From: an uncultured Pirellulaceae bacterium
GTDB lineage: Bacteria > Planctomycetota > Planctomycetia > Pirellulales > Pirellulaceae
Direction of reading: 5' to 3'
Assembly: GCA_964446085.1 (NCBI GenBank)
Contig: CAYUNP010000002.1
Coordinates: 3,266-67,265 of the forward strand
Length of the DNA: 64,000 nt
Translations under genes and position numbers: made by a program
In this document: one piece after another, positions 33,613 through 60,727 of the stretch
Position numbering within the stretch: position 1 is the first letter of the stretch
How the letters are laid out: the number at the start of each line of letters is the position of its first letter
Notes under the pieces: generated by a model
Told to the model about the DNA's origin: nothing
Database searches by the model: none
Seen by the model: only the letters and a program-made list of their open reading frames with translations

Positions 33613-33702
33613 TCTTGGTTTCGAATTTTCAAATGTAGGTTTTTGCGTGTGGGATCAATAGCGTTTCCGGTGAGGCTACCAACAAACACTTGCTCTTACT
33701 TC

Positions 33703-36700: not shown

Positions 36701-39700
36701 TCTCCGCCGAGTCCCATTCTCATTCGTTGCCACTGGACATCCATGACGGTCGCCTGGACAACGTCGTCGACAAGCATTCTTTCCATCGCTGAGTGAGCTT
36801 CGGAAATCGTAAGTGGCGTGATGCCGGACAAAGCCAGTCGCTTGATGATTCGCTCGTCGTCTGCCATTCCTTCAGTCCACGGCCCCCAGTTGATGCTCGT
36901 CGCAGGAAGGCCAAGTGCGCGTCGTTGCCAGGCCAACCCGTCAAGGAATGCGTTGGCGGTTGCGTAATTGCTTTGCCCGGGTGATCCGAGAACCGATGCG
37001 GCAGAAGAGTAGAGGACGAAGAAGTCCAGTTCGAGAGTTTTCGTGAACTCGTGCAGCAAGCTGGCTCCACTGACTTTGGGCGCGAGCACCTTTTCAAATC
37101 GCTCCCACGATTGATCTCCAATCAAACCGTCGTCCAAAACTCCCGCCGCGTGAATGACTCCCGAAAGCGGTTTGAGATCATCACCAAAACGGGACAACAT
37201 TTTTTCAACATCATCGCGTGAAGACATATCAGCCGAATGAACGATAACTTTACAGCCTGCCTCTTTGATCGTGTCGAGAAAACATTGCGTCGATTCATCG
37301 GGAGAGCGTCTTGAAACCAGCACAACCTCCGTCGCCCCGTTTTCAGCAAGCCATTTCGCGGCTTGTCGACCCAGCATTCCCAAGCCACCCGTGACCAGAA
37401 AGCTACCTTCGGCGTTGACTTCAAATTCTGTTTTGCTTTTCCTGTTGACCGAAGTCCGTTTCATCCGCGGAACCATAAACTGGCCGTCACGAACGACTAA
37501 CTGATTGTCCCGCGTTTCGGTGAGCAAAATTTCCAGAACCGCAGTCGATGTTTCCGGGTTTTCAATCTCGCCAGAACCAACGTCGATCAAGCGGCAACGA
37601 AACTCCGGCTGTTCGGCTCCGATGACGCGTCCGAGTCCCCAATACTGTGTTTGATTGGGATCAACAGCTTCTGAATCATCGCTGGCGATCGCATCCGTCG
37701 TGATCAGTTGCAACCCACACTCAATTCGCCGCTGACCACGAACCGCGAGCGTCGCAGTCAGATTCAACAGTCCGGTACAGTTTTCTCTGGTTCGCGATTC
37801 CTGGCTGGCAGTTGTAAACCAGGCGATGCCCTGCGGCGCGAAAGGTTGGTCATCCGTAGACAATTGATCGAAAAGCGCACTCCAGTTCTCAGGCGACTCA
37901 CTGCACATTGAAAACCGGTTTTCGGACTCCTGTTTCATTCCGCTCTGGCTTCCGATCTCCAATTCAACAACGCGATGTCCTTTTGTTTCCAGTTCCGCCA
38001 CAACACGTGGAGCAACGCTGTCGTTTTGGCCGCGAATGATCAACCAATCTCTGTTCTCCGCACTGGCCGCGGGCAGGCGCAAGCGTTCCCAATTCAATTC
38101 GAAAATCAAACGTTCCGATCCGCTGCCACTCATTTGCCGCAGCGCCGCGATGCTGACCTGCTGAACCTTTAGTTCTTCAATCTCCGCAACGACCTGCCCT
38201 GCTTCATTGAACAAAACCAAATCCGCCGTTCGAATTTTGCCCTCATTCTGATTCCAGCGAGCGTGACACCAGACTTCATTTTCGATCGTCTGCAAACAAC
38301 GAACTCGCCCGATTCCAACGGGCAAAAACAAATGACCGTCGTCTTCTCGCAGCAGTCCGACGGCCAGCGAGTGCAATGCACCGTCGAGCAACGTCGGAGC
38401 AATCGTAAACCCGCGAACGTCGCCATTGGTTTTAAGCTGCGTGAGGACTTCGGTTTCCGAATACCGCAATGAATCAATCGTTTGGAACTTGGGACCGTAG
38501 TTCAGACCAAGCTGCGACATTTTCTGATAAAAGTCCGCGGGCGTTGCCGACTCAGTACATGCGGCTTCCAACGCGGCGCGGTCGATCAGATCGAGCGGTG
38601 AATTCTCACTTGAAACGATCTTGCCGGTGAAGTTCCGAGTCCAACTCCTGGCATTGGCGGGCGAAGAAAAGACTTCGATCGTTTGCTGGTCTTCCGTTTT
38701 GCGCACAATCGTTTGCAGGCTCGTTCGCGACGTTGGGCGAAGTGGCTGCTCAAAAACGATGTCGGCGACCTGATCAGAGCCAGCAGCGGCCAACGCCATC
38801 TCAACGTAAGCTGCACCGGGCAAAACAACGTTGCCCATGACTTCGTGATCGGGCAACCACGGCGGACTGTCAGGCTCCACAAAACTTTCATATCTCGATT
38901 CGTTTTCGATTCCCGCAAGTGAAACGGCTCCGCCAAGCAACGGATGAGCCGTGTGATACTCGGCGTGAAAGGCTCGCGGTTTGTCCGGCCCCCAAAACCT
39001 TCGTCGCTCAAACGGATACGTCGGTAGCAAAATCCGACGAGGAGTTTGCCCGCTCTGGTCGTCGTGAATCGCTGCGAAGTCCGGTGTCGATCCTTGAACG
39101 TAAAGCTGCCCGACCGCTTTCAAAATTGATTCGACATCGTCGGCATCTTTCTGCAGGCAACTAATCAGCGATCCAGCAGGGCGCTTCCAGTTTGCAGTCG
39201 CCATGCGAGTCAAAACCGATTGCGGGCCAAGCTCAAGAATGACTTCGCAACCGAGTTCAGCAGCGGCTTCGATACCCGTGGAGAAACGGACGGCTTCACG
39301 GATATGACGCGCCCAATATTCTCCGTCGAGCGTTTGATCGACCGTTAACGGTTTACCGGAAACGTTGCAGATCAGCGGCAGTTGGGCCGGACTGAATGTG
39401 ATGCCGTCAGCGAACTTTTGAAACGGCTCAAGTGCCGGCTCCATCAGCGACGAGTGAAATGCATGCGACGTCTGCAACAGTTTGGTGCGAACGCTCTGTT
39501 CTGAAAATCGGGATTCCAATTCGCCGATCGCCAACTCGGTGCCGCTGACAACGACATGCGTTCCATTTAGCGCGGCAAGGGAAACATCGGCAGCGGTTTC
39601 AATTTGTTTGGTGACGATATCGAGCGGAGCAAAGACAGCCATCATTTTTCCGCCAGCAGGAAGCTCGCCAATCAGCCGGCCGCGTTCACTGATCAAACGC

Positions 39701-41700
39701 AAGCCGTCTTCCCATGACATGATGCCAGCAACACAGGCCGCTGCGTATTGTCCAACGCTATGGCCAAGCACTACATCGGGCTTGAGCTCCCAGTGTTGCA
39801 ACAGTTGGGCGAGTCCCATTTGCACGGCGAAGATCGCGGGCTGCGTCCAGTGTGTGTTGTGGATCCTGGTTTCGTTTTCGAACAGGACTTCGGTAAGCGA
39901 CTCCTGTCGCAGCGGTTGCAACTGGGCTTCGCAGCGGTCAATCGCGTCCCGGAAAACAGGTTGAGATTCGTAAAGGGACCTGGCCATGCCAACGTACTGC
40001 GAACCCTGACCGGTAAATTGCCAGGCGACTTTCGGGGCTCGACGACCGCTTCCGATAAAGGAGTTACCAGACGTCGTTTCTCGTGAAATCTTTTTTAAAC
40101 GCTGGATTGCTTCGTTGTGATCTTTGGCAACCACAGCGGCGCGGTGTTCAAAGTGACTTCTACCAGTGCCGGATGTGAATGCGACATCACGGAGCTTCAG
40201 CGACTGATCCGATGTCAACGCGTCCGCGTATTCTTCGGCCAACGTTTGCACAACGGATTCGCTTTTCCCGCTCAGTACGATCAACTGTGATTCCTGCGAG
40301 TTATTCGGAATTCGCGTAGCGGTAACATCAGGCGCCTCGATCACTACATGCGCGTTCGTGCCGCTCATGCCAAACGCACTGACACCGGCAATCCTGCGAC
40401 CGGATTCGGGCCAGTCGGTAGCGTCAGTGAGGACTTTGACGGGAATTTTGTCCCACGGAATATGTGGGTTGGGTGTTTCAAAGTTCAGCTGCCCCGGGAT
40501 CTTGTCGTTTTGAATCGCAAGCAGAACTTTGATCAACCCAGCCATTCCCGAAGCAGCTTCGAGGTGGCCGATGTTGGTTTTGACTGAGCCAACGAGTAAT
40601 GGATTTTCTGGCGAACGTTCCTGAGTCAGCGCCGCAGCAGCGGCCTGGATTTCAACCGGATCACCAAGCTCGGTTCCCGTTCCATGGGCTTCGAGATAGG
40701 CGACGTCGGCGGGTTCAACACCGGCTCGCTCAAGGGCCTGGCGGATAACTTTTGTTTGTGATTTTGGATTGGGAGCAGTCAGCCCACTGCTGAATCCGTT
40801 ATGCCCGACGGCTGAGCCGCGAATGATTCCCAGAATCGGATCGCCGTTGGCTTGCGCGTCCGATAGTCGCCGCAATGTCACGACACCGCAACCTTCGCCA
40901 CGCAGGTACCCATCGGCAGCTGCATCAAACGCACGAGACTGACCAGTGGGCGAGAGGGCTTTTAATTTGCAAGTCAAAATGTTGGTCGTCGGTGAACAGA
41001 TCGCGTTGACACCACCGACAAGTGCCTGATCGCAATCACGTCTCTGTAAACTCTGGATCGCCAGGTGCAGTGCCACCAACGATGAAGAACAGGCTGTGTC
41101 GACCGCGACGCTGGGCCCTTGTAGGCCAAGGTAATACGCCAGCCTTCCACAAAGGAAACTTCCCGCGGCACCGGTTGCGATGTATGGGTTGAGGTTCAGA
41201 AACGAATCGCTGGCTTCGTTTTGATAATCGTTATGCATCCAGCCGACAAAGACGCCTGTGGATTCACCGATTGATTCGGGCTTCCAGCCAGCTCGCTCGA
41301 TCGCTTCCCAACCAACTTCCATCAGCAACCGCTGTTGTGGATCGACCCAGGTCGCTTCGCGTGGTGAGATGCCGAAGAATTCAGGATCCATCTGATCGAT
41401 GTTTTCCAGAAACACGCCGCGACGAGCATACATCTTTCCGGGCACTTCAGGGTCATCATCGTGGAAGGCATCCAGGTCCCAACGGTCGTCAGGAATGTCA
41501 CCAACTTCGTCGGTTTGATCGAGTAACGATTGCCAGAACGCTTCAGGGGTGTTGGAGTGGCGGGGAAAACGACAGGCCATCGACACGATCGCGATCGGTT
41601 CGCCTGAGTTGGATTGCGCGTCCGCAAGTTGCTGCTTCAACTCACGGATCTTGAGCAGAGCCTGTTTGTTCGGAGACAGGTTTTGGGAATCAGTTGTCAT
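33703..41700 (-). CDS. Type I modular PKS: docking-KS-AT(malonyl)-DH-KR-ACP-KS(Cys->Ser)-truncated inactive AT
   Basis: KS1 DTACSSS/HGTGT/NIGH; AT1 GHSVG and HAFH; DH HEVMGNVVLP and DGALH; KR GGLGMLG, LDD, YATAN; ACP GLDSL; KS2 DTASSSS/HGTGT/NISH; AT2 GFGVG lacking Ser and the small subdomain. No terminal ACP or TE. Confidence 0.93.
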   Translation of the reverse strand: MTTDSQNLSPNKQALLKIRELKQQLADAQSNSGEPIAIVSMACRFPRHSNTPEAFWQSLLDQTDEVGDIPDDRWDLDAFHDDDPEVPGKMYARRGVFLENIDQMDPEFFGISPREATWVDPQQRLLMEVGWEAIERAGWKPESIGESTGVFVGWMHNDYQNEASDSFLNLNPYIATGAAGSFLCGRLAYYLGLQGPSVAVDTACSSSLVALHLAIQSLQRRDCDQALVGGVNAICSPTTNILTCKLKALSPTGQSRAFDAAADGYLRGEGCGVVTLRRLSDAQANGDPILGIIRGSAVGHNGFSSGLTAPNPKSQTKVIRQALERAGVEPADVAYLEAHGTGTELGDPVEIQAAAAALTQERSPENPLLVGSVKTNIGHLEAASGMAGLIKVLLAIQNDKIPGQLNFETPNPHIPWDKIPVKVLTDATDWPESGRRIAGVSAFGMSGTNAHVVIEAPDVTATRIPNNSQESQLIVLSGKSESVVQTLAEEYADALTSDQSLKLRDVAFTSGTGRSHFEHRAAVVAKDHNEAIQRLKKISRETTSGNSFIGSGRRAPKVAWQFTGQGSQYVGMARSLYESQPVFRDAIDRCEAQLQPLRQESLTEVLFENETRIHNTHWTQPAIFAVQMGLAQLLQHWELKPDVVLGHSVGQYAAACVAGIMSWEDGLRLISERGRLIGELPAGGKMMAVFAPLDIVTKQIETAADVSLAALNGTHVVVSGTELAIGELESRFSEQSVRTKLLQTSHAFHSSLMEPALEPFQKFADGITFSPAQLPLICNVSGKPLTVDQTLDGEYWARHIREAVRFSTGIEAAAELGCEVILELGPQSVLTRMATANWKRPAGSLISCLQKDADDVESILKAVGQLYVQGSTPDFAAIHDDQSGQTPRRILLPTYPFERRRFWGPDKPRAFHAEYHTAHPLLGGAVSLAGIENESRYESFVEPDSPPWLPDHEVMGNVVLPGAAYVEMALAAAGSDQVADIVFEQPLRPTSRTSLQTIVRKTEDQQTIEVFSSPANARSWTRNFTGKIVSSENSPLDLIDRAALEAACTESATPADFYQKMSQLGLNYGPKFQTIDSLRYSETEVLTQLKTNGDVRGFTIAPTLLDGALHSLAVGLLREDDGHLFLPVGIGRVRCLQTIENEVWCHARWNQNEGKIRTADLVLFNEAGQVVAEIEELKVQQVSIAALRQMSGSGSERLIFELNWERLRLPAASAENRDWLIIRGQNDSVAPRVVAELETKGHRVVELEIGSQSGMKQESENRFSMCSESPENWSALFDQLSTDDQPFAPQGIAWFTTASQESRTRENCTGLLNLTATLAVRGQRRIECGLQLITTDAIASDDSEAVDPNQTQYWGLGRVIGAEQPEFRCRLIDVGSGEIENPETSTAVLEILLTETRDNQLVVRDGQFMVPRMKRTSVNRKSKTEFEVNAEGSFLVTGGLGMLGRQAAKWLAENGATEVVLVSRRSPDESTQCFLDTIKEAGCKVIVHSADMSSRDDVEKMLSRFGDDLKPLSGVIHAAGVLDDGLIGDQSWERFEKVLAPKVSGASLLHEFTKTLELDFFVLYSSAASVLGSPGQSNYATANAFLDGLAWQRRALGLPATSINWGPWTEGMADDERIIKRLALSGITPLTISEAHSAMERMLVDDVVQATVMDVQWQRMRMGLGGESPAMLDGLVAGKRKVSKGDSELVGRLKRLRGPAQRELLLGTIRDSLQGILSTPDAPETDRPLIEMGLDSLMAVEFGTELQQMLGDDFEVGPTMLFDYPTIDAITDFVLELVANQAEAGTPAVAAVTDQPLQQAARVREDVAIVGMSCRFPGANNVDEFWDNLINGVDSVCEIPADRWDMDRFYSADREPGKMYTREGGFLDDIANFDAAFFNISDQEACWIDPQHRMLLENSYRAMEDAGISPHPLTDSNVGVFMGIMGQDYAFIPTMDDIDVVKQFQGAGLSHSAGVGRISYVFGFEGPSIAVDTASSSSLVALFQAVRSLQDGNCNMALAGGVNAILAPVNSLLMSKAGLLSPEGRCKSFSADANGFGRGEGCGVVVLKRLGDAQRDGDRIMAVVRGGAVVHNGFSGGITSPSGKAQTRVISDALKDAGIAPSQVQYLEAHGTGTEYGDPMELGAASGVYGKGRKPDQPLLVGSVKANISHLEAAGGVSGLIKTVLSIHKGVIPPQAHFDKPSPHIPWQRMPVKMVTEPTPWPEVEERRAGITALGLVGTNAHIVLSSAPDDAVKMDTSLPGDGSDVRSSDQPGRTAELLVLSARNENALSQLTSDYREFIEQNSAIRLADVCHTAASGRRHFEHRVALTIKSPEDAIQKLNELVGGNSASTLNGLRAAGANGSGNGAHHHFEGIAQGVCKAAPRVGWFFAGMLSADDSFAHDLFATEPVFREMIGEFDQRLMSHLSQTQQSVFQLQAWLGAEGADSESAVPADVKQFVLQAGLAKIWLQWGVEPDVVLGFGVGQYVAACMAGCLCFNDALLLVLERGKVVSGGDVTPNEESLNAFEAFADQFNYYPPNMSLICSIGGNVVPVHKSLGGSYWREHCSAKPMLPESVATLSGMDCDFVLELGVGDWGDIATLEFGATRLKSLSSNQDASTSLLSALGKLYAGGVNPCFAALSQYWERNRLSLPTYPFQKKRYWITEIDDHVKDEEFVQVEVRKEEMA

Positions 41701-41730
41701 GCGTTTTTAATGCGGTGGTATCGTTTTAGG

Positions 41731-41800
41731 TACAAGCCCGAAGCGCAAGCGAGTGAACTCGATATGCGGAAAATTCACTCGCTTGCGCTTCGGGCTTGTA
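41731..41800. repeat. REP-like perfect 27-bp inverted repeat
   Basis: TACAAGCCCGAAGCGCAAGCGAGTGAA (41731-57) and its exact reverse complement (41774-800), with a 16-nt spacer. Confidence 0.85.
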
Positions 41801-41802
41801 TT

Positions 41803-43833
41803 TTATGCTTCCAGTTCTTTCATCAACTCTTCCAGTGCCTGCTCTTCTGACATTGAGGCGACTTCCTGTCCCGTTGTAGAATTTGGTTGCGAAACATCGG
41901 TTAGTTTTTGGAACGCGTTGCCATGTGGTTGAAGTTGTGTCTTGCTCTTGTCGGCTGCTTTATCGGCGCTGACCGTCTTCAATAAAAAATCGGCCAGGTC
42001 ACTGAGTCGCGGATAGTCGAAAACGAGAGTCGCGGGAACTTCGTTTTCCGGTCCAAGTTCGACTTGAATCTGCGAACTCATTTCCACGACCATCAATGAA
42101 TCGAATCCCGCGTCCAGGAATCGGGTATCGGATTCAGGTCGTTCTTCTGATCCGGTGATGGACTGGACCAAGCCCTGCACGAAATTGAGTGAAACTTTTG
42201 GCTGGTCGGCAGCGAAAGCTGACTGAAGTTGTTTGCGAAGCGTAGGAGGGCGAAGTTTTGCAGAAGATACAACTGCTGAATCAGCCGACGATTCCTCACT
42301 TTGTTCAGACACGCCGAGGTTAACTCCTGCGATGTCCATCTCGCGAAGATTTGTCTTGAGGATTTTGCCGGATGGATTACGCGGCAGTTCGTCGATCACG
42401 ACAAACTCGCGAGGCACTTTGTAGTTGGCAAGATTTTCTGAAGCGAGCTTTTGCACGCTGGCATTCAATTGATCATCGGCCTCTTTCCCAGAAGCACCTG
42501 CGACCAGAAACGCGACAACTTTCTCGCCAAAGACATCATCTGGAATTCCAACAACCGCACACTGCGAAACGTCGGAGTGATCGAGCAGGACGCGTTCGAC
42601 TTCTGCCGGATAGACTTTCTGCCCACCAACGGAAATCATGTCTTTGACTCGGTCGACGATATAAAAAAAACCGGTTTCGTCGATACGGCCAATGTCTCCC
42701 GAGTGAAACCAACCGCCTTTGATTGCTGCAGAGGTGTCGTCGGGGCGATTCCAATAACCAAGCATTACGTTTGGACCACGAATCGCGATCTCGCCCAGTT
42801 CGCCTGGCGCGCAAGTCGCACCAGTTTCGGTGTCAACAATTTTCATCTCCACACAGTCAATCGGCGTCCCAATCGAACCGGGGATGAATTTATTCCGATG
42901 GTTGTAACTCGCAAACGGCGAAGTCTCAGTCAGTCCATAGCCTTCGTGGATCGGCAATCCAAACTTTTCCTGCCAACGTTGACCGACCTGAATCGGCAAT
43001 GTTGCGGCGGCCGAGAAACAATAGGTAACCGTGCTCAATTCGGCTGGCTGAAAACTGTCCTGGAATAGCTGGAACATCATCGGCACGCCGTAAAGCTGGG
43101 TGACGCTTTCTTCGGCGATCAACTGCTTGGCTTCTGATGGATCAAACTTTCGCTGCAAAACCAGCGTCGCTCCAACATTAAGAGCCGAATTCAGGAGCGC
43201 GTTTTGACCAAAGCAGTGAAACAACGGCACGGCCAACAAAATGCGATCCTTCGATTGCATGTTGCACAAATGATTGAACGCATGAACATTGGAGCGAACG
43301 TTCATGTGCGAAAGCGTCGCGCCTTTGGCGAATCCCGTTGTGCCTGATGTGTAAAGGATCAACGCGGGATCATCAGGCGCGGCGTCGATCCATTTCTCCG
43401 ACGCAGGCGACGGTTGCGCCAGCGGTTCACCATTGCAAAGGTCGCCCGGATCCGAAGACGCATAACGGTTGGCGACGCAAGCGGGCAAATCAGATTTCAG
43501 TTTGTCCAGTGTCTCGGCCAACGCGACAAAGATCCTGGCTTGGCAATCTTCGACCAGAAACGAAACTTCCGACGCCGCAAGTCGAGTGCTGATGGAAACT
43601 GCGATGGCTCCAATTCTCAGCGTCGCATAATACCAGACAACAAACGCTGGGACGTTAGGCATCATGATCGCAACTCGATCGCCTTGTGCCACGCCTGCCT
43701 CGGCTAACAATCCAGCAACCGAACGCGACATTGAATCGAGTTCTGCGAAAGTAAACCGACGGCCTTCGAATACAATCGCCTCCTTGTCAGGAAACAGTTT
43801 GGCCGTAGCGGTTAGGTGTTCGCAGATGTTCAT
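41803..43833 (-). CDS. Acyl/aryl-AMP (CoA-ligase-type) adenylation domain fused to ACP; PKS loading module
   Basis: YTSGTTGFAKG, PLFHCFG, GYGLTE, GWFHSGDIG and PSGKILK, then ACP GFDSL and an acidic C-terminal docking helix EEQALEELMKELEA. Confidence 0.9.
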   Translation of the reverse strand: MNICEHLTATAKLFPDKEAIVFEGRRFTFAELDSMSRSVAGLLAEAGVAQGDRVAIMMPNVPAFVVWYYATLRIGAIAVSISTRLAASEVSFLVEDCQARIFVALAETLDKLKSDLPACVANRYASSDPGDLCNGEPLAQPSPASEKWIDAAPDDPALILYTSGTTGFAKGATLSHMNVRSNVHAFNHLCNMQSKDRILLAVPLFHCFGQNALLNSALNVGATLVLQRKFDPSEAKQLIAEESVTQLYGVPMMFQLFQDSFQPAELSTVTYCFSAAATLPIQVGQRWQEKFGLPIHEGYGLTETSPFASYNHRNKFIPGSIGTPIDCVEMKIVDTETGATCAPGELGEIAIRGPNVMLGYWNRPDDTSAAIKGGWFHSGDIGRIDETGFFYIVDRVKDMISVGGQKVYPAEVERVLLDHSDVSQCAVVGIPDDVFGEKVVAFLVAGASGKEADDQLNASVQKLASENLANYKVPREFVVIDELPRNPSGKILKTNLREMDIAGVNLGVSEQSEESSADSAVVSSAKLRPPTLRKQLQSAFAADQPKVSLNFVQGLVQSITGSEERPESDTRFLDAGFDSLMVVEMSSQIQVELGPENEVPATLVFDYPRLSDLADFLLKTVSADKAADKSKTQLQPHGNAFQKLTDVSQPNSTTGQEVASMSEEQALEELMKELEA

Positions 43834-43905
43834 TCTTTGGCTTCCGGAAAAGCAGTCGCGCGAAGTCTCGCCAACGCAGCTTCTGATCTATCAAGTTGAA
43901 GTGGA

Positions 43906-43959
43906 GGTTTGTGGAACTGTCCTCAGACAGAATGCCGGCTAAAGCCAGGACGACAAACC
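43906..43959. repeat. Degenerate REP-like palindrome
   Basis: CCGGCTAAAGCCAGGACGACAAACC (43935-59) with a partial complementary arm GGTTTGT..GTCCT at 43906-23. Confidence 0.35.
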
Positions 43960-43978
43960 GAAGTTCTGTTTTGACGCT

Positions 43979-45643
43979 TTATTGAGTTCCTTGCAAAAAA
44001 CTGTGTTCAAACGAATCAAGAATTGGCTTGACGGCTTCAACCACCGCGCCCTCATCCCGAATATTCTGGTGCAGGGCTTCTATATCCTGTTCCAGCCAAC
44101 GATCGGAATCGTCGAACAGGAATGGCCTGTCCTGACCAGGCGAAGAATCAAGAACTTCGTAAACCGCCGAGTAAAGTGGCCGGGCCTGGTCGCCAATCAC
44201 TTTCCTTCCGTCGTAATGTCCGTAGCTGGATTTAGCCCGCATATCGAGAGCCTGAACTCCAAAGATCAACGCGATGGCCGAATATTGCTGGAACAGTTCG
44301 ACTGACTTCCAGGCCAAATTCGCCGCGCCCCAACTCAGCCCATTCACGTTTTGATTGAACTGTTCGGCGTGAGTCGGGAAATGTTCGACCAGCGGATTGG
44401 CGTTGTAGGTCAACATGGGCATAATCGAGTTGCCTGTGATCTGTAACCCCTTGAGCCCCATGTTGTAGGAAAGCGATTCGTTGCCGCGAAGCGACGGAGT
44501 CAGCCCGCCACTGAATTCGGGCGTGACCAGCGACGCAATTTGCACATCGAGATGCTTGGCCATCAGTCCGATGAACCGGCGCAGATCGTCCATCGCGATG
44601 CCAACGTACTGGCCGAGAAAATTTCCACTTTGATAAAACTGCCCCGAAGTCGGATCAATCATCGGGTTATCGGAAACAGAATTCATCTCCGTCTCGACGA
44701 CCCGATTGATGCGTGCAATACCTTCGACGATCGGGCCCATGTATTGAGGCAGGCATCGCAGCGAATAGCGATCCTGGACTTTGATCGGTTTACCGTTGGT
44801 GTGCTCTCGGCCTTCGGCAAGCCAACGTTTTGAGATCTTTGCTGTCCAGATTTGACCGGGGTGCGGTTTGTGTTGATGAACGAAATCGTCAAACGGGCTT
44901 TCATTGACCAGCAGTGCACGTAGCATCAACGACTGTGTTCCAACCGTCAGCGCCATCAAGCTGCGGGCTTCGTAGCTTGCATTGGCTGCGATCGCAGAAG
45001 AGAACGACGTCCCGTTGATGATCGCAAGACCTTCCTTGGGCTGCAATTGAAGTGGCTTCAATCCAAGTTCACGAAGCGCTTCAGCTCCATCGACAACTCG
45101 ATCGCCCATCTGGACTTTGACATGCCCGATGCCGGTGATGGCTCGCGCGATTGCTGACAATGGAACCAGATCGCCGCTGGCACCGATCGAACCGAGCTCA
45201 CGTACGACCGGAGTGGCGTCGGCCTTAAAGAATCGAACCAGGCGATCGATGATCTCCATTCGCACACCCGAGCAACCACGCAGCAAAACGTTGGCTCGCA
45301 AAATCATTGCTGCCCGGACATGACGAGAATCAATTGGCGATCCGGCTGAAGCTGCCAGAAAGGAAAGCAAGTTGTCCTGCGACGCCGCCGCGTGTGAGGA
45401 AGAAATTTCTTCGCCGGCCATTGCTCCAAAGCCAGTCGTAACGCCATAGATTTTTTCGCAGGAAGAAACCGCCTGGGCCACGGTACGTGAAGAAGCCGCG
45501 ATGCGTTCACGAAGAGACTCGTCGTCTTTGATCGAAATTGCCAATTCTTTTTTGGCGACCGCAACAATCGTCTGGATCGATTCCTTGTTCCCGGCGAGCG
45601 ACAGCTCTTTGCCAGAAACAACATTTACTTTTTCGGTCAACAT
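43979..45643 (-). CDS. pal: MIO-dependent aromatic amino acid ammonia-lyase, probably phenylalanine ammonia-lyase
   Basis: IYGVTTGFG, GSIGASGDL (MIO-forming ASG), QDRYSLRCLPQ, SDNP, GNFLGQYVG, HAEQFNQN. The selectivity site reads SFL (Phe-Leu, PAL type). Confidence 0.85.
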   Translation of the reverse strand: MLTEKVNVVSGKELSLAGNKESIQTIVAVAKKELAISIKDDESLRERIAASSRTVAQAVSSCEKIYGVTTGFGAMAGEEISSSHAAASQDNLLSFLAASAGSPIDSRHVRAAMILRANVLLRGCSGVRMEIIDRLVRFFKADATPVVRELGSIGASGDLVPLSAIARAITGIGHVKVQMGDRVVDGAEALRELGLKPLQLQPKEGLAIINGTSFSSAIAANASYEARSLMALTVGTQSLMLRALLVNESPFDDFVHQHKPHPGQIWTAKISKRWLAEGREHTNGKPIKVQDRYSLRCLPQYMGPIVEGIARINRVVETEMNSVSDNPMIDPTSGQFYQSGNFLGQYVGIAMDDLRRFIGLMAKHLDVQIASLVTPEFSGGLTPSLRGNESLSYNMGLKGLQITGNSIMPMLTYNANPLVEHFPTHAEQFNQNVNGLSWGAANLAWKSVELFQQYSAIALIFGVQALDMRAKSSYGHYDGRKVIGDQARPLYSAVYEVLDSSPGQDRPFLFDDSDRWLEQDIEALHQNIRDEGAVVEAVKPILDSFEHSFLQGTQ

Positions 45644-45728
45644 ATCTATGAGTGTAAACGATCCAGGTGCATAACTTGACCCTCAATTGTAGGCGATTTG
45701 AACCGTAATTGTAGTTGGGCGAATAACT

Positions 45729-48700
45729 TCACGCCTCCTGAATGTGACCTGGGCTCACGTTTTGGGCCGTCTCAAAGTTATCCAGCTCCCGTTTTCGATG
45801 CAGCAGCAAATACAATGCGGGCACGAAATAGAGTGCCAGAAACGTAGCCCCGCCAACGCCTCCAGCGATCGTAATCGCGAGCGGCGGCCAGAATTTTCCG
45901 CCGCCAAGTATCAGCGGAGTGAACCCAACGATCGTCGTCAATGTGGTGGCGATGATATGTCGAGTGCAGCCGGAGACCACGCCGACGAGCGATTCCGAGT
46001 CTCCGCAGCGAGCCGAATCATTGCTGCGGATGGCTGCCAGAACCACGATCGAATCGTTGATCGCCACGCCAACCAAACCCATCGTCCCGACGATCGACAT
46101 GAATCCAAATGGAAAACCGAAAACCGAAAGTGCCAACGGTCCCAGGCCAATCGACAGCCCTCCCACGACCGAAACAATAATGGCACAGCGAAACGAATGA
46201 AAGGATGCGACCAGCGTTAACAACATCAGCGCAAACAACACAATCGCATTGGCGATCAAACTGTTAACCGCGTTGGATCGCTGCTCCGTTTCTCCACCCA
46301 GTTCCAGGTCGTAACCAGCTGGCATTGCGAAATCCGCATTTGCCAATCGCTGCCTGAAATCATCCAGAACCGTCGAAGGCAAAACGCCTGCCCGAATGTA
46401 AGCTTTGACTTCGTTCGCACGTCGTCCATCAATTCGAACCACAGCACCAACATCTGACTTGAGCTCAAAGTTTGCCAGGCTGGCCACTGTCGGGTTGGCC
46501 GATGTCGTGGGAGGTCGTCCCGTGGGAGGTCCTGCACCACGCGGCGGCGGTCGACGTCCAGGCGAAGTCAACTGCAATGCCGAAAGCAGGTCCAGTTTTG
46601 AGTCACCGTCGAAATCAAGTTTGACCACTATCGGAAGTTCTTCATTGCCGTCAAAGATCTCTCCGGCAGGTGCACTTTCCAAAGTCGTGTAAAGTTGAGC
46701 TGCGATCTGGGTCTCGGTAAGCCCTGATTTTTTCGTAAGCACTTTGTCAAAATCCAGAGTCAACTTGGGTATCGTTTCTTCCAAATCCGATCGTGTATGA
46801 ATCACGTTGGGCGTTTGACTCAACAGCAGCCGCAATTGCGACCCAATCTGTTGTAGCGTTGCCAGGTCCGGCCCGACCACACGGACTTCAATCGGAGCAT
46901 CAAAAGGTGGGCCCTGCTCCAGTTGCCGAACAATCACGCGACTATCAAGTACGCTTGCGTCGATAGCTTCCTGCAGATCGTTGACGACATCGTCGGTCGC
47001 CAGGCCATCGCCAACATCCACAATCGCCTGAGCATAAAACGCCGTGCCTCTACGGCGTGGCACAACGTTGTAGTAGAACGTCGGTGCACTGCCGCCCAGG
47101 AACCAGTGCTGGCGTTTCACATTCTCGTTTTCGGAAACCACTTTTCGAATTGAATCAACCGATGAGCGGACAGCCGAAATGGAATCACGAGCTGACCGTT
47201 CGACTTCGATTTGAATCTGATCCCGATCCGATCGGGGAAAGAACTGCTGAGGCAATTTCCGGGCGACCGCAAACCCGACGATCGGCAATACGATTCCAAG
47301 CAGGATTCCAACCAGCGGGAACCGAAAAACCCAACTCAACGACCTTTCGTAGATCTCTTGCAGCACGCCGATCTTTATTCCGTAGCTGACCAGCCCACGT
47401 TGGTGTGGGTTAATATTGAGCAATGCATTGACCGGCGGAATCAGCGTCATCGCCAGCACAAAGGAAGCGCAAATCGCCAGAATGACACTCACGGCAATCG
47501 AACCTACGAACTCACCCGAGGGGCCCGGCAAAGTCGCAATCGGCAGAAATGCCAACGCGGTTGTCAACGTTGAACCAAACAATGGCATGCCGAGATGACG
47601 CACCGAACCTGTGATGGACTGCTGTGGAGATTCACCATTGACGATCCGTGTTCGAACTTCTTCCACGATCACGATCGCATTATCGATCAGCAGCCCGAGC
47701 GCCACGATCAATCCTGTCACTGACATTTGATGAATCGGAATCGAAAGGGCTCGCATGCCCGTGATCACCATCAGTGCCGACAGGGGCAAAGCCATTCCAA
47801 CCACCAGCATGCTGCGCCACCCCATCAACAGCAGAACCACCAGCGCCACTGCAGCGGTACCGACACCGAGGTTCTGCACCAGTGTCAACATTCGCTGATT
47901 GATGTGTCTCTGTTGCGAAAACAGAATCCGGGCTTCGGCTTCTTCGGAGTAATCCAGGTTGAAACTTTCGATCACTGATTCCAATCCAGTCGCCCATCGG
48001 TCAATCTGCTGGTCGTCGTTGGCGAACGCTCCAAGCACAATCGCACGTTGGCCATCGACCAGCGCCAGATTGCCAGCGGGGTCCAGTAACCGTTTCTCAA
48101 TATTGGCGATCTGCGAGAGCGCGATTGACTGCCCACTGCTACCGTGCGAAACCAGTACGTTGGCGATCCGGTTGCTGGGCAAGTCGGGTTTCTCAATATC
48201 GACAAGCGTTGCAGCTCCGTCGTTGCGCAGGTGGCCGCCGGGTTGTTTTGAGTTTTCCTGCCTGATTTGAGAAGCGATCGCAGCCAGCGAAGTATTCAAC
48301 GAAGCCAGAGTTGCAGGATCAAGTTCGGCGACGAGTTGTTCGCCCGGATCTCCAAACACATCGACTTTCCCGGTTCCCGAAATTTCAAGAATCTGATTGC
48401 GAAGTTGCTTTGCCAGGCGACGTGAAAGCGAAACGTCATCAGGGTTACTGCTGGACTTGATCGCAATGATTGCCGAATAGGCTTTCAGTGGAAACACCTC
48501 CAACTGCGGATCAAAACAGGACTCCGGCAAGCGACCACTGACGTCCGTGATGCGACTTCGCAGCAGCGTCCAAACCCGTTCAACATCGTCGACTTCATCC
48601 TTGAGTTCGACGACGATATTGGAGATACCCGTTCGGCAGTTGGATCGAACCTGCTTGATTTCAGCAACACTGGTCAGCAACTCCTCAATCGGAATCGTGA

Positions 48701-48884
48701 CCAAAGCTTCGACCTGACTGGCGTCGGCACCCGGGAAAACGGTGCTGATAACGGCAACCCGTTTGCCAAGAATGGGATCTTCAAGCCGCGGCATCACCGT
48801 CAGCGACGTCAAACCGGCAACCACAATCGTGCCGATCAAAAGCAACAGGATCCGCGGATTCTTGTACAGAAACGTTGCGATCAC
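45729..48884 (-). CDS. RND efflux permease (AcrB-like)
   Basis: [28 protein letters not shown], 12-TM pattern, 1051 aa. GTG start overlaps the MFP stop. Confidence 0.92.
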
Positions 48885-49945
48885 TCGCCGTCTCCTGAAC
48901 CCGGTTTCGTAAACCGCTCCGACACATCGACTGTTTTAACTGTTTGCCCCGGCACGATTCGGTGCGTCCCGTTTACGATTACAAATTCGCCATCGCCAAG
49001 GCTACCTTGTGCCAGCGCCCATTCGTCTTCAAGTTGCACGATCTCAAGCATCTTGCGTCGAACCTGGAAGGTACTGACATTCGATTCCGACTCAGCCACA
49101 GCCCCCTTCGTCGCCACAAGGGCCGACCAGAGTCCGGTTGATTCGCGGGCCAGAGCTGAGACCGGAATCCAGTATCCGGTATTGTCGGTAGAAGTCAGGA
49201 ACAGAATCTTCACCGTCTGACCAAACGACCAACTTGCTGGCTCAATGGGATCCGTCACCTGAAATGAAACGATCCGGCTTCCCACCGTTGACTCAAAAAG
49301 CGATTGGCTCTTAACAGCAGCCTTAACCGAATCCTCGCCAATGACGATCCACACCGTGCTTCCAACATCCAGTCCCTGAGCAATCTCCAGCGGAAGATTT
49401 GCTTCAACGAGAACAGGGAGTTCTTCAACGATCGTGACGATTGGCGATTGCGGAGAAACCAGGTCACCCACCGCCGCGTTTTGTGTCGCGATGACGCAAT
49501 CGTAGGGCGCGACCAGGTTTCCTTTTTCGAGTTCCAGTTCAACAGCTGCCAGTTGAGCCTGAAGCTGCCCAAGGCTGGCCTGATTCCCCTGAACCCCCTG
49601 TGCTTCCTCAATTGACTTTTCAACGTCGGATTTCTGTTGCTCCAGTTGCTCCAACTCGAGGGAGGCAATTTGTTCGCCAGATTTGAATTTCTGGCCGACT
49701 TCCTTGAGCAGAGATTTGATTCGCCCGGCCTGGCCAAAGCGCAGCTGGCTTTGGCGATTTGGCTTAAGGGTGCCAAAGAAGGCCGATGTCTCAATCGCGC
49801 CCTCGACGCGCGTCACCTTGATTACGTTGACGTTCACAACAGATGGGCTGCGAACCGCCAGCGCTGAGCTTTCCCGATCGCAACCGGAAACCGTCACGCT
49901 CAACAGCAGCAACAGGAGCAGTTTTGGGCTCAAGTCATTTGACAT
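48881..49945 (-). CDS. RND membrane fusion protein (periplasmic adaptor), lipoprotein
   Basis: Lipobox VTVSGC; LRFGQAGRI, LVAPYDCVI, VIVNGTHRIVPGQTV. Confidence 0.88.
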   Translation of the reverse strand: MSNDLSPKLLLLLLLSVTVSGCDRESSALAVRSPSVVNVNVIKVTRVEGAIETSAFFGTLKPNRQSQLRFGQAGRIKSLLKEVGQKFKSGEQIASLELEQLEQQKSDVEKSIEEAQGVQGNQASLGQLQAQLAAVELELEKGNLVAPYDCVIATQNAAVGDLVSPQSPIVTIVEELPVLVEANLPLEIAQGLDVGSTVWIVIGEDSVKAAVKSQSLFESTVGSRIVSFQVTDPIEPASWSFGQTVKILFLTSTDNTGYWIPVSALARESTGLWSALVATKGAVAESESNVSTFQVRRKMLEIVQLEDEWALAQGSLGDGEFVIVNGTHRIVPGQTVKTVDVSERFTKPGSGDGE

Positions 49946-54116: not shown

Positions 54117-54475
54117 CGCATCCCGCTCAATAAACAACAATTGAATTCCATCCGGAAAACATCTCGCTCGCCAGTACAGATCTTGTTCGATTGTAAGCAA
54201 TGTAATGCAGTTAACCGAGTGGTGAACCGGGCAAACCGGCGACGTTTTCAATCAATCAAATCAAAAGGACGCGGTCGTCAGAATGAGGGCAGACCACGGT
54301 TCTACAGTGAGTTACTTACCCAATTGGATTATCCTGGCTCGTTGATTTGATCCCATTTTGCATCTCCAGAGCTGTCTGCAATGGCCGTTGAAGAACATTG
54401 TTCGTAAGGAATTCCTGCGTCCAACGCCTAAATAGTGACAAATTGAAAATCATTCCGAGCATGAACGGAGAAATC

Positions 54476-56278
54476 ATGGGTACCAAAGTCCGCCCACCTG
54501 GCCGTATATCGATCACCTTTCTTTTGGCTGTCATTGCCCTGACACTGCTCGGTTCGATCGCTGAACAGGCGGAAGCTCGCGGCAAGAAGTTTGGCTTTCG
54601 TGGCGGATTCCGGGGAGGTTTTGGACGGTCTTTCAAACGCAGTGGATTCCATCGTTCGTTCAAGCCAAGCGGATTCAATCGTTCGTTCAAGAAGGCCAGT
54701 GTCTTCAAGAAGCAGCGTTTCGGATCGTTTCGCCGATTTGGCTTCAATGGATTTCGCGGATTTGGTCGCTCCAAGTTTAACTCGTTAGCATTTCGCGGTC
54801 GCCGATTCGGTTCTGGTGGCTTTAACAAGTTCAATAAATTTTCCAGCGTTGGTTTTCGTGGCAGTCGAAGAGGCTTCAACACGTTCAAACCAGGCTTCAA
54901 CACATTCGCATTCAGTCACTTTCCGGTACAACGTTTTCACTCCGGCTTTGCGACATTCAATCATCCAAAATCGTTCGTGGCCAACAGTTTTTCAGGCGGC
55001 CCGAATCACTTTACGTCAGTCCGATTTCCGAGTCACGTTGCAAACGGTGCAGGCTGGACTTATCTGGCCAAAGGGCAACCTGTGAATGCCAAGACGGCCT
55101 TCGTCGACGACATCTCTGCAGGCGGTTCGCCGGGAATCGCCCGAGTCGGATTTGCACTTGCTTCGGCAGACAACGGTGAACTGGATCGTGGCGTCTGGGC
55201 TATGCGACGGGCGTTCGCAGCTGACAAAGACATGGCGGCTTCACTGATGATGGATGAAGAAATGAGCGAAATTGTTGCTCGCGTCACCCGCCTGTACGAA
55301 CAACGCATGGAAGACAAAGGAACCAATTCGGAAGACGCATTCATGCTGGCTGCGATGTACCAACTGCAGGGCGATCCTGAGATGGCGATGATGGCAATGG
55401 ACTATGCCTTGAACACTGGTGACAAAAATGTTTCAACAATCTACCTGAATCAGCTGATCGAAAGTGAAATGTCAACCATCCCGATGACCAACAGCGTTGG
55501 CTGGGAATTGCTCGCCAAGGGCGACAATGTTGAAGCTGCGAGGACGTTCATCGATGAGATCGGCAAAGACGAAATGGCCGGAGCACCAAAACTGGGCTAC
55601 GCCCTGGCGATGGCTGCTGGAGGCGATTTGGAAAAGGGTACCTGGGCGATACGTCGTGCTTTTGATGTTGATCCGGAAGGGACTTCCGATGTGGTGATCA
55701 GCGGCAAACTTCGCTCGGTCGTCGAAAGCGTCACCGAGAAGTATGTCGCCGACGCGGAGACCAACGGAATCGGCAAGGACAACTCCTATTCGCTGGCGAC
55801 TTTGTTCATGCTGCAAGGCGATATCGAAGCGGCTGAGTTGGTCGCCAAAAATTCTCCTGTCGATCAGGACTCCTATGTTGTCACGATGATCGTCAACGAA
55901 ATGAAATCGCAGATGACCATGATGGACGAAGCCATGTCCAAAATGGACGACGCCAAAGAACATAGCTACGATGAATTCGTGGCTTCTGAAAAAACGTCTT
56001 CAGTGGAAGATTCAATCAGTGAGGGTTCTGGCAGCAAGAATCCAATCCTGGTTGAGGCACCAGTCCCTGAGGGATCGTCCAGCAAGAATCCTGTTCCGCA
56101 GCAAGGTTCGGGCACCAAAGAACCGCCTGTTGCTGCTCAAGGTTCCTCCAGCAAGAACCCTGTTGAAGAAACACCGGACAACGAATTGCCCCTGCTGGGC
56201 TCGGGCAGTAGAACACCGGTTACCAACGGTTCGGGCACCAGGACACCTGCCAGCCAGGGATCAGGCAGCAGGTTTTGA
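54476..56278 (+). CDS. Secreted protein: Phe/Gly/Arg-rich low-complexity region, duplicated TPR-like domain, GSGS/T repeat tail
   Basis: GGAG RBS and signal peptide; duplicated GW..LAKG...FALA/YALA..G.L..G.WA.RRAF..D; C-terminal GS(G/S)(S/T)(K/R) repeats. Confidence 0.7.
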   Translation: MGTKVRPPGRISITFLLAVIALTLLGSIAEQAEARGKKFGFRGGFRGGFGRSFKRSGFHRSFKPSGFNRSFKKASVFKKQRFGSFRRFGFNGFRGFGRSKFNSLAFRGRRFGSGGFNKFNKFSSVGFRGSRRGFNTFKPGFNTFAFSHFPVQRFHSGFATFNHPKSFVANSFSGGPNHFTSVRFPSHVANGAGWTYLAKGQPVNAKTAFVDDISAGGSPGIARVGFALASADNGELDRGVWAMRRAFAADKDMAASLMMDEEMSEIVARVTRLYEQRMEDKGTNSEDAFMLAAMYQLQGDPEMAMMAMDYALNTGDKNVSTIYLNQLIESEMSTIPMTNSVGWELLAKGDNVEAARTFIDEIGKDEMAGAPKLGYALAMAAGGDLEKGTWAIRRAFDVDPEGTSDVVISGKLRSVVESVTEKYVADAETNGIGKDNSYSLATLFMLQGDIEAAELVAKNSPVDQDSYVVTMIVNEMKSQMTMMDEAMSKMDDAKEHSYDEFVASEKTSSVEDSISEGSGSKNPILVEAPVPEGSSSKNPVPQQGSGTKEPPVAAQGSSSKNPVEETPDNELPLLGSGSRTPVTNGSGTRTPASQGSGSRF

Positions 56279-56331
56279 CTTGCTTCGCTGGACTCAGCGT
56301 TCTACTGAAGAAGATCGTTCTACTGAAAGAT

Positions 56332-56859
56332 TCAATTCGCGAATGAGGCTTTGGCAAGTTTGAACTGGTCGAGCAACTGGCTTACCGGGATTCGCCCAGC
56401 GACCCGGTTGCCATCAATGCGGCCACCGATTTCTTTACCTTGAAGATCGTGAACGCGAAGAACCGGGTAGCTGCCAAAGTGCTCATTGAATCGTTTGTAC
56501 TGTGATGAGTCACCGAGCGTGTCGATGAACACAGGGACGAAGTCAGCAGAAGCGGCGACGACGTTTTTGTTAACAAGCGGACCGCTTGCAAATCCTCGAC
56601 ACCCGGCTCAGCCAGGGTTTTCGCCAAAATGTAGCCACACCGGCCGGTTGGTTTGTTTTGCATCAGCCAAAGCATCGTCGTAGTTTACATACCAGTCGAT
56701 TGAACCAATGCGGACTGTCTCCGCGTTCGCATTCAATCCGACACTGGAAGTGCTGCCTTGGCCAGGAGCCAGGGCGGTTGAATTTTCCGGTGTGCCGGAA
56801 CAGCCTAACAGGGCGAGTGTTGTTACCAACGTTCCGATTACGAGCAAGTACTTTTTCAT
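56332..56859 (-). CDS. Thioredoxin-fold lipoprotein with in-frame UGA in a UxxC motif (putative selenoprotein, 175 aa, Sec84)
   Basis: Track ORFs 56608..56880 and 56332..56532 are in the same frame. Reading through TGA 56610-56608 gives WLHFGENPG-U-AGCRGF with no further stop to 56332. AAGGA RBS, lipobox LLGC, and a Trx-like W..YDDALADAKQTNRPVWLHF motif. Confidence 0.85.
56573..56589 (-). promoter_or_regulatory. Candidate bacterial SECIS hairpin
   Basis: GCAAGC-GGTCC-GCTTGT starts 19 nt after the UGA; the apical loop begins with G about 25 nt downstream of the UGA. Confidence 0.6.
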
Positions 56860-57073
56860 CGAGTTGTCCTTTTCAGACATGTAGAATCGCCGCTGTCCGG
56901 CGCTGCGAGACAGGATTGAACGGTCATCGTCCCGGTAACACTACGTCAAAGATCAGCCACCGGCCATTGCATTTTTCGTTTCGGTGGACCTGCTTACTCA
57001 ATGGATGCACCGAATGAGCGCTTCTGTCAATGAAAACAAACGTTTCACAGGCTACGGAAAGACGCCAGCCACA

Positions 57074-59442: not shown

Positions 59443-59626
59443 GGGTCGCTCGAACCTGATTACCAAATAAAATGCCTGGTCGTGAGGTGAGTTTCCATCA
59501 TAATCTCGCAGTGGAGTCTCTTAGTCCCTCAACTGGCCAGATAGAGCCGATTGCTGCGTCATTGAGAACCGCATATTGGCTGCCTTTAACGACTGTTCCG
59601 ATTTTAAGCTAATCCCGATTTCCCCG

Positions 59627-60727
59627 ATGAATGACGCCCATTTCGAACAGCTGGCCCAGCAATGGCAGGAACGGTCCACTGAGCTTGGCGAATGGGTGAT
59701 GGAATACTGGGTCAACCGCCGGGACATCTGGGGGCGTTACCTCGCCGACAAGTATCGTGGCCAATCCAATACTGGAGCGGTAAAGAACAAAGCGATCACG
59801 GCTCCATTCGCTCGAGAGAGAGGCAAAATTTCGTTGCAGTTGAAGTCGCTGGTCAAGCACTTCAGAGCCAGAGATGGCTCGGGCCTGCTGGGGGTCCATT
59901 CCCAGGCGGCCAACGGAACCTGCCGCTGGTTCGCCATCGACATCGATTACCACACGCCTGATGACTACACCGGATCCCGGGAGGCCAACTACCTCGCAGC
60001 AACGACGTGGCTAAAGCGTTTACAGTCGAGCGGTTTTGATCCATTGCTGATGGATTCAAACGGCGACGGCGGTTATCACTTGCTACAGTTCTTCGCCAGC
60101 CCGATGAATACGGACACGGTTCGTCCATTCATGAAAGCGCTGACCTCAGACTATCAAACGCTGGGACTCGATCATGCTCCTGATCTGTTTCCAGGGACGC
60201 ATGGCTCAAACCATTTCGGCAGTTGGCTAAGGTTGCCGGGTTTGCATCACACACGAAAGCACTTCACTCGCGTTTTTAATGACGAGCCATTTGCGGAGTC
60301 CGAATGGCTTGCAGGGCATGACGCGATCGATCGCATGCTTGCAACTCAACCAGCGAGCGAAGGAATCCTTGAACAGAATGGTATCACTTCGAAGCGGCTA
60401 ACGGTTTGTTTGGACTTTGACGGCGTGATTCACTCTTACCAGTCTGGCTGGCAAGGAGCGGATGTTGTGGCGGATCCTCCGATCCACAAAGTTGATGTTG
60501 CGATTCGAAACCTGAGAAAGGACTTTCGCGTCGTCGTTCATTCGGCTCGCTGCAATACCGAAGAGGGCCGGGCCGCGATTGCTCGCTGGTTAGCGAAACA
60601 CCAAATCGAAATAGACGAAATTTGCGAACACAAACCACCGTCTCATGTCTACGTGGACGATCGGGCTGTTCAGTTTTCTGGTGACTGGGAGCAAACGATT
60701 GCGGATGTCAAAGCGTTTCGAAAGTAG
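59627..60727 (+). CDS. AEP (archaeo-eukaryotic primase)-like domain fused to a HAD-superfamily phosphatase
   Basis: N-terminal RWFAIDID (DxD), SNGDGGYH (SxxGxH) and WLRLPG; C-terminal CLDFDGVIHSY, HSAR, KPP and YVDDRAV. Confidence 0.65.
   Translation: MNDAHFEQLAQQWQERSTELGEWVMEYWVNRRDIWGRYLADKYRGQSNTGAVKNKAITAPFARERGKISLQLKSLVKHFRARDGSGLLGVHSQAANGTCRWFAIDIDYHTPDDYTGSREANYLAATTWLKRLQSSGFDPLLMDSNGDGGYHLLQFFASPMNTDTVRPFMKALTSDYQTLGLDHAPDLFPGTHGSNHFGSWLRLPGLHHTRKHFTRVFNDEPFAESEWLAGHDAIDRMLATQPASEGILEQNGITSKRLTVCLDFDGVIHSYQSGWQGADVVADPPIHKVDVAIRNLRKDFRVVVHSARCNTEEGRAAIARWLAKHQIEIDEICEHKPPSHVYVDDRAVQFSGDWEQTIADVKAFRK

Follow-up and report, generated by a model that had tools for sequence, protein, structure and literature searches.

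Is the TGA triplet that interrupts a reading frame in the DNA stretch considered here a genuine stop, or is it read as selenocysteine (Sec)? The stretch is a 64,000-nucleotide segment of an uncultured Pirellulaceae bacterium (contig CAYUNP010000002.1; hereafter, the window), and the frame in question lies on its minus strand at 56332-56859, with the TGA as codon 84. We argue that the gene very probably encodes a 175-residue exported selenoprotein of the thioredoxin (Trx) fold in which UGA-84 is read as Sec with the aid of a downstream hairpin and SelB, a protein that is probably lipidated at Cys20 and is likely to perform selenol/thiol-disulfide exchange. As judged from sequence comparison, this is a genuine selenoprotein gene. 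Its features are listed below; Trx stands for thioredoxin, U for Sec, and SECIS for the selenocysteine insertion sequence.

56332..56859, minus strand: complete coding sequence of the predicted selenoprotein, 175 codons plus a terminal TGA, with Sec as codon 84 (from translation)
56867..56871, minus strand: possible Shine-Dalgarno sequence AAGGA, 7 nt ahead of the ATG (read from the sequence)
56800..56859, minus strand: predicted signal peptide with lipobox (MKKYLLVIGTLVTTLALLG-C20; read from the sequence)
56719..56799, minus strand: low-complexity Ser/Gly/Thr/Pro/Asn tether, residues 21-47 (27 residues), variable in length and sequence among homologues
56335..56718, minus strand: Thioredoxin_7 / DsbD-gamma-like domain, residues 48-175 (Pfam, structure model and Foldseek)
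56608..56610, minus strand: in-frame TGA, Sec84, first position of the U-x-G-C redox motif (translation and homologues)
56599..56601, minus strand: Cys87 (TGT), presumed resolving cysteine of UxxC, kept in every family member found and placed by the model in the first turn of helix 1
56573..56589, minus strand: putative SECIS hairpin, with stems 56589-56583/56579-56573, loop 56582-56580 and apical GGUCC, formed by the codons of A-S-G-P-L-V
56455..56475, minus strand: GSYPVLR loop with the presumed cis-Pro132 adjoining the active site (invariant alignment columns)
56332..56334, minus strand: true stop codon, also TGA (translation)

Conservation of the UGA codon and the hairpin behind it

An earlier note on this DNA, made from the letters alone, had placed the TGA on the first redox position of a Trx-like protein, counted 91 open codons past it, and pointed to a GCAAGC-GGUCC-GCUUGU hairpin at SECIS distance; all three statements stand. 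The coordinates given in that note coincide exactly with the coding sequence, which starts at ATG 56859-56857 and the product of which begins MKKYLLVIGTLVTTLALLGC. The TGA at 56610-56608 is embedded in WLHFGENPG-TGA-GCC GGG TGT (Ala-Gly-Cys) followed by Arg, which gives the motif U84-A-G-C87; the letters AGC that had been written after the triplet (FGENPG-TGA-AGC) are amino acids, not bases. Exactly 91 sense codons (AGCRGF...ASFAN) then separate the TGA from the next stop, and the hairpin, at 56589-56573, begins 18 nt past the UGA.

The triplet itself is well attested. In the Logan contigs of four metagenome runs, which represent two marine samples at approximately 10x and 31x depth, the only differences from the window are at 56295 and 56758, and the TGA is unchanged in the assemblies of all four runs, which excludes the sequencing error that the earlier note had held up as a danger. 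The homologues tell a consistent story. Among 5.8 billion proteins searched, 22 relatives came to light, 12 of them N-terminal fragments that all end in ...HFGENPG, seven of them C-terminal fragments that start just past HFGENPG, and three 'full-length' entries with Trp at the Sec site; since the DNA of these three reads TGA, the Trp stems from a gene caller using code 4. Thus, public protein sets either split the gene at the TGA or read Trp, much as had been foreseen for standard callers. In a profile search of 1.84 billion cluster representatives, 29 of the best 150 stop exactly at the glycine that precedes the Sec codon; here the own family scores at least 187 bits and the proteins with VPGC instead at most 82 bits.

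At the DNA level, a scan of one genome per GTDB species yielded 35 loci, with TGA in 34 and TGC in a single one (L038, from a metagenome-assembled genome (MAG) labelled Brocadiaceae), and a metagenome scan added 29 more informative loci (28 TGA, one TGC). Pooling gives 59 distinct 60-mers, 57 with TGA and two with TGC, and the profile search contributed a further Cys form (P0023/L041), 49% identical to the window protein, with TGT at the Sec site. The alternation of Cys codons and TGA that the earlier note proposed to look for is therefore there, and neither TAA nor TAG nor any residue other than Cys occurs at this codon among the homologues found. The TGA-carrying homologues span 45-70% protein identity, and the motif of the family as a whole is [NDH]-P-G-U-x-G-C. 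Nearly all carriers are Planctomycetota MAGs (Pirellulaceae, Mariniblastus, Aureliella), among them the chromosome-level OZ253677.1 (Mariniblastus sp.), OY829846.1 (Aureliella sp.), CBDFNH010000008.1 and CBDFJQ010000002.1, while CAZIVO010000020.1 and the Logan contig SRR21361594_113 represent lineages with a Cys form; a few are labelled otherwise, namely, L018 and L039 (Burkholderiales), L031 and L040 (Xenobia), and L034 (Paceibacteria), and these labels could stem from mis-binning or from horizontal acquisition of a gene that has since decayed. In three of the 35 genome loci the gene has defects at other places, a deletion in L034 and frame breaks in L039 and L040.

Protein-level selection runs on unchanged past the TGA. 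In pairwise comparisons of 34 sequences, codon positions 1/2/3 differ on average by 0.32/0.23/0.55 over the 33 codons upstream of the triplet and by 0.31/0.25/0.62 over codons 15-85 downstream of it. Codon usage gives the same picture, with a score of 0.09 before and 0.12 after the TGA, compared to 0.11-0.17 for real genes and -0.2 to -0.37 for off-frame readings. When the 320 TGA-bridged frames of the window are ranked by two-sided coding potential, this one comes second, behind a frame with only 24 downstream codons, and there is no other TGA-bridged frame in the window with a coding signal on both sides.

If the UGA is to be read as Sec, a SECIS element is to be expected, and the hairpin behaves like one. 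RNAfold predicts 7 bp, a GUC triloop and -8.0 kcal/mol for the local 24-mer. In the ungapped alignment of the 35 Sec forms (A2), all 35 sequences preserve the core helix (columns 24-28 with 32-36), and its pair 24-36, formed by the wobble bases of the Ala and Leu codons, is GC in 15, CG in 9, AU in 6, GU in 4 and mismatched in 1 (in the pooled set, GC 26, CG 18, AU 6, GU 6, mismatch 1). The covariation score of this alignment was reached by none of 500 shuffles, and structures shifted by 1-3 columns fall to 28-52% paired. The apical GGUCC is present in 56 of the 57 pooled sequences, in 42 of which the stem is lengthened by three pairs over one bulged base in the 3' arm, the window hairpin itself being a continuous 7-bp stem free of bulges. 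Codon choice is constrained accordingly: in the Sec forms, the Gly codon of the hairpin is always GGT (33/33; 20% of Gly codons elsewhere in the same genes), the Ser codon always AGC (29/29; 37% elsewhere) and the Pro codon nearly always CCG (31/32; 42% elsewhere). In the three Cys forms the codons are different (GGA CCA CTA in L038) and the hairpin is missing; local folding yields -3.4 and -4.0 kcal/mol, whereas Sec forms range from -6.8 to -15.5, apart from L005 (-2.9). The terminal TGA of the gene is not followed by a hairpin like that of codon 84.

The published model of the bacterial SECIS (bSECIS) sets four limits: 3-9 nt for the loop with at least 4 bp for its stem, the apical pattern N1-G-[G/U]-N-N2 with a G within the first two loop positions, a distance to the UGA of 16-37 nt, and a folding energy no higher than -7.5 kcal/mol (PMC13188914, Fig. 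2A). The hairpin falls within all four limits, with its 7-bp stem and short loop, G-G-U-C-C, 24-25 nt spacing and -8.0 kcal/mol, and this agreement, together with the covariation and the absence of the element from the Cys forms, bears out the suspicion of the earlier note. In fdhF of E. coli, the SECIS loop lies about 18 nt from the UGA, compared to 24-25 nt in the family. The two elements are alike in being stem-loops in the coding sequence just past the UGA with an apical G-G-U-C (consensus in PMC13188914), whereas the stem sequence of the family is unrelated to that of fdhF. The peptide motif F-x-x-G-P-L that overlies the hairpin is also conserved in the Cys-containing VPGC relatives; hence, it looks as though the SECIS arose at synonymous positions within a protein motif that predates it.

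Fold, export and probable function

What kind of protein would be made if the UGA is decoded? The Pfam Thioredoxin_7 model (PF13899) matches the window protein with 30.9 bits against a cutoff of 27, and the structure can be judged from an AlphaFold2 model of a homologue (P0001) that is 60% identical to the window protein and carries Trp in place of Sec. The mean predicted local distance difference test (pLDDT) score of this model is 78.5, with about 90 or more in the domain and less than 50 in the signal peptide and tether. The U position lies directly ahead of helix 87-94, the first turn of which contains the Cys, and in the invariant G-S-Y-P loop (alignment A1) the Pro stands directly ahead of strand 135-139, as in the cis-Pro loop of thioredoxin. 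The best Foldseek matches of the model are 3f9u (an exported cytochrome c biogenesis Trx domain of Bacteroides), AGR2, DsbD-gamma (1uc7, 1vrs, 2fwf) and DsbH. As far as the model can tell, then, the fold is DsbD-gamma/Thioredoxin_7-like, with Sec at the N-terminus of helix 1, in agreement with the Trx-like fold and N-terminal redox position that the earlier note had read from the letters.

The resemblance to DsbD-gamma and to the Thioredoxin_7/DsbH domains (3f9u, 2ju5, 7tkv) extends, beyond the fold (Foldseek probability 1.00, target-normalised template-modelling score 0.6-0.7), to a periplasmic location, predicted for the window protein, and to a redox motif situated at the N-terminal end of helix 1. 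However, identity is only 17-21%, these domains have CxxC where the window protein has UxxC, and DsbD-gamma is part of a membrane protein whereas the window protein is a stand-alone domain with a predicted lipid anchor.

The N-terminus reads MKK-YLLVIGTLVTTLA-LLG-C20, that is, a basic and a hydrophobic region followed by a lipobox cysteine, the layout of a lipoprotein. Homologues start with MKK[HQY]L, and in all 14 with an intact N-terminus a hydrophobic region is followed by G-C. In a long-form subgroup, the family domain is preceded by a signal peptide and by approximately 350 conserved N-terminal residues, a domain that has no Pfam match; this subgroup comprises L012 (about 8837-10171), L026 (about 8777-10105), L027 (about 1502-2803) and L038 (about 8675-10105), the last being the one Cys-containing genome copy. 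Every form of the family is, by its predicted N-terminus, exported. Among relatives outside the window, P0024 (866 aa) strings together five tandem Thioredoxin_7-like domains, mostly with APSWCGPCQW, and P0041 combines a WD40 beta-propeller with a family-like domain in which the redox motif has been lost (RNDPRGETS).

The following sequence of events can be envisaged. SelB with Sec-tRNA(Sec), recruited by the GGUCC hairpin, would decode UGA-84 as Sec, as the comparative evidence suggests. The product would be exported via its signal peptide and probably lipidated at Cys20, so that, given the lipobox and the fold, the flexible linker would tether the domain to the membrane, facing the periplasm. 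There U84-A-G-C87 would most likely carry out selenol/thiol-disulfide exchange, to judge from its fold and export signals and from the sister family considered below: Sec84 would attack an oxidised substrate, Cys87 would resolve the mixed intermediate with the formation of an intramolecular Se-S bond, and this bond would be re-reduced by a membrane electron shuttle of the CcdA/DsbD type, if electrons indeed flow in this direction.

Rival readings of the locus

The most prosaic reading, which puts the TGA down to faulty sequencing, to a nonsense mutation of recent date or to a pseudogene, can draw on the splitting of the gene by gene callers and on the three damaged genome loci, but it would have to account for an identical TGA in four runs from two samples, for its presence in 57 of 59 distinct homologous sequences at 45-70% protein identity, and for substitutions that remain dominated by the third codon position past the triplet; we reject it as next to inconceivable. 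Hardly better placed is the notion that the TGA is an ordinary stop, with an 83-residue lipoprotein stub on one side and, on the other, a C-terminal peptide that has a start of its own. There is indeed a 66-aa GTG-initiated ORF (open reading frame) downstream in the same frame, and such C-terminal fragments occur among public gene calls. However, the split would cut the Trx fold exactly at the active site, the 25 codons between the TGA and the GTG are as conserved as the rest with no conserved start past the TGA, the Cys forms are single continuous proteins, and both halves fold as one confident domain in the P0001 model; this reading, too, is rejected as very improbable. A third possibility is that the UGA is recoded, only not to Sec, be it by an alternative code (Trp or Gly) or by hairpin-aided read-through with a near-cognate Trp or Cys tRNA. 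The three database entries with Trp and the unproven Sec machinery of the genome speak for it. Yet TGA is the ordinary terminator of 8 of the 27 long ORFs of the window, this gene included, which excludes the alternative codes 4 and 25; the 'W' entries are TGA seen through a code-4 caller; the only sense codons at the site are those for Cys, at the nucleophilic position of a CxxC-type motif; and the hairpin fits the SelB-type apical pattern G-G-U-C-C. An alternative genetic code is accordingly rejected, and recoding to another residue as a whole seems quite improbable.

Function leaves more room for doubt. The protein could be a selenoprotein that is not a disulfide reductase, with a peroxidatic Sec84, as in glutathione peroxidases or peroxiredoxins, or with U-x-G-C as a carrier of metals or metalloids (Cu, Hg, As, Se). 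Such activities are predicted for many catalogued UxxC/CxxU selenoproteins (PMC13188914, Table 1), and the gene has no conserved partner genes. We consider this unlikely, though deserving of attention, given that the best structural matches are disulfide-exchange domains (DsbD-gamma, DsbH, cytochrome c biogenesis Trx), that the cis-Pro loop of Trx-type oxidoreductases is invariant, and that in the sister family NF041383 the domain is joined to an MsrA-like segment, an association typical of a reductant domain.

Against these arguments for an exported disulfide-exchange selenoprotein, several observations have to be set. The 64-kb window and about 650 kb of related loci yielded neither tRNA-Sec nor selA, selB or selD, a result that is expected and uninformative and leaves the Sec-decoding trait of the genome unproven. 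Specifically, ARAGORN detected no tRNA-Sec in the window or the 35 loci, Pfam scans of the 27 long window ORFs recovered no sel genes and no DsbD/CcdA, and local tblastn with approximate E. coli SelA, SelB and SelD probes gave no match in the window or in any of the loci, which is equally uninformative. Complete sets of selA, selB, selC and selD are on record in some Planctomycetes, including a Rhodopirellula (PMC4807772, Table S8). The contigs of three metatranscriptome runs from the same study do not cover the gene. No conserved gene neighbourhood emerged either from tblastn of the window neighbours against the loci or from all-against-all clustering of the flanking ORFs, both of which returned only overlapping spurious frames; the redox partner and the substrate are, therefore, guesses. 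In Rfam, no family matches the hairpin, at gathering thresholds for the whole window or at permissive E-values for the hairpin, the only matches being at chance level on the wrong strand. Since F-x-x-G-P-L is shared with the Cys relatives, the nucleotide conservation of the hairpin is in part protein constraint. Finally, the active-site loop of the P0001 model, which represents a homologue with Trp for Sec, has a pLDDT of only about 67. These points notwithstanding, we consider the proposed selenoprotein very probable.

Known relatives, novelty and surroundings

How new is the family? The earlier note had cautioned that a related NCBIfam (seleno)thioredoxin family might already exist, and this caution was well placed: VPGUxxT (NF041383/NF041382, types 2/1; the hypothetical protein OS_HP5 of the ocean-sampling selenoproteome in PMC13188914, Table 1) shares with the window protein an exported Thioredoxin_7-type domain in which Sec or Cys comes right after Pro-Gly and is followed by F-x-x-G-P-L. 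The two VPGUxxT models are the best NCBIfam matches of the window protein (E = 7e-21 and 4.5e-18). However, its scores against NF041382 and NF041383, 74.9 and 65.9 bits, fall far below the cutoffs of 350 and 275, whereas true members (P0037-P0039) reach 312-361 bits on NF041383, and only the Trx part of the models is covered (positions 21-151 of 349 and 2-108 of 287); identity to the member P0037 is 33% over 154 residues. The motif is different as well, HFGENPG-U-x-G-C as opposed to EVPG-U-x-x-T, with Asn for Val and Cys for Thr, so that the V-P-G-U-x-x-T signature is absent, and the architecture differs too: members have about 290-350 residues with a C-terminal extension of approximately 150-200 residues, which the window protein lacks, ending as it does about 5 residues past the Trx domain. 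The sub-cutoff scores, the differing motif and the missing extension indicate that we are dealing with a sister family of VPGUxxT rather than with a member.

The type 2 members P0037-P0039 carry a C-terminal MsrA/PMSR-like segment (FAMYCYWTGE...), with weak matches (PMSR matches in P0037 and P0038 only), which suggests a Trx-MsrA-like fusion in the envelope. The attachment of the same domain to such a segment in the sister family points to the repair of oxidised envelope proteins.

Other selenoproteins of the Trx superfamily with Sec in the redox motif are more remote, namely, Trx7/PDZ (NF041199, CxxU), TsoX 'HSGNPxU' (NF045809), TsoB (NF045694) and the thiol:disulfide interchange protein (PF13098). 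TsoX shares the N-P-x-U signature, and the window protein has no match to its model (NF045809) at E <= 0.1; on NF041199 and NF045694 it scores 19.9 and 20.5 bits, far below the cutoffs of 300 and 805. A 2026 review (PMC13188914) lists 119 prokaryotic selenoprotein families, including VPGUxxT, Trx7/PDZ and TsoX, none of which has the motif or the architecture of the window protein. A text search of the literature, for the motif and for selenoproteins in Planctomycetota or Pirellula, retrieved no description of the family; alignments in figures cannot be searched this way, and earlier sightings are possible. Thus, the family is uncatalogued and absent from curated selenoprotein lists, yet of a thoroughly known kind, a Trx-fold UxxC protein with a canonical bacterial SECIS.

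Taken together, these comparisons lead us to a tentative proposal, in which we place slightly less than even confidence: the HFGE[NDH]PG-U-x-G-C proteins would form an uncatalogued and nearly always Sec-containing family (57 distinct Sec forms against 3 with Cys), largely from Planctomycetota (Pirellulaceae, Mariniblastus, Aureliella and relatives) of marine and other aquatic habitats, exported and lipid-anchored, with a SECIS assembled from the codons of the older A-S-G-P-L motif, and could help to keep the Sec-decoding trait in marine Pirellulales. Inasmuch as the family is almost exclusively Sec and not Cys, it could be a useful marker of the Sec trait in Planctomycetota. Annotation pipelines miss the gene everywhere, and in the few full-length entries the Sec codon is read as Trp. 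With a curated model and annotation that allows for Sec, dozens of planctomycete genomes would regain a conserved redox enzyme of the envelope, and the approximately 119 known prokaryotic selenoprotein families would gain one more. The understanding of Sec decoding itself is unaffected. The family matters chiefly for annotation, as a marker of the Sec trait, and for its hairpin, which illustrates that a SECIS can take shape at synonymous positions within a peptide motif conserved beforehand; it also provides a clear-cut natural example with which to ask what selenium contributes under the oxidising conditions of the cell envelope.

Several other features of the window deserve mention. On its minus strand, at 30215-49945, there is a biosynthetic gene cluster with two Trp-halogenase-like flavoproteins, an AMP-binding/ACP loader, an aromatic amino-acid ammonia-lyase, a 2665-aa type I polyketide synthase (KS-AT-DH-KR-ACP and a second KS) and an RND efflux pair (AcrB-type and HlyD_3). 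An ORF at 59576-60727 on the plus strand encodes an archaeo-eukaryotic primase domain of the TOTE conflict-system type (PF22548, E = 4.6e-9). Tail to tail with the selenoprotein gene, at 54398-56278 on the plus strand, lies a 626-aa ORF without a Pfam match, which has Arg/Gly/Phe repeats at the N-terminus (GFRGGFRGGFGRSFKRSGF...) and GSGSKNP / GSSSKNP / GSGTKEP units at the C-terminus. The 53-nt gap between the two convergent stop codons contains two copies of the direct repeat CGTTCTACTGAA (56299-56330, plus strand), and the C>G variant at 56295, which adjoins this repeat, is found in all four runs.

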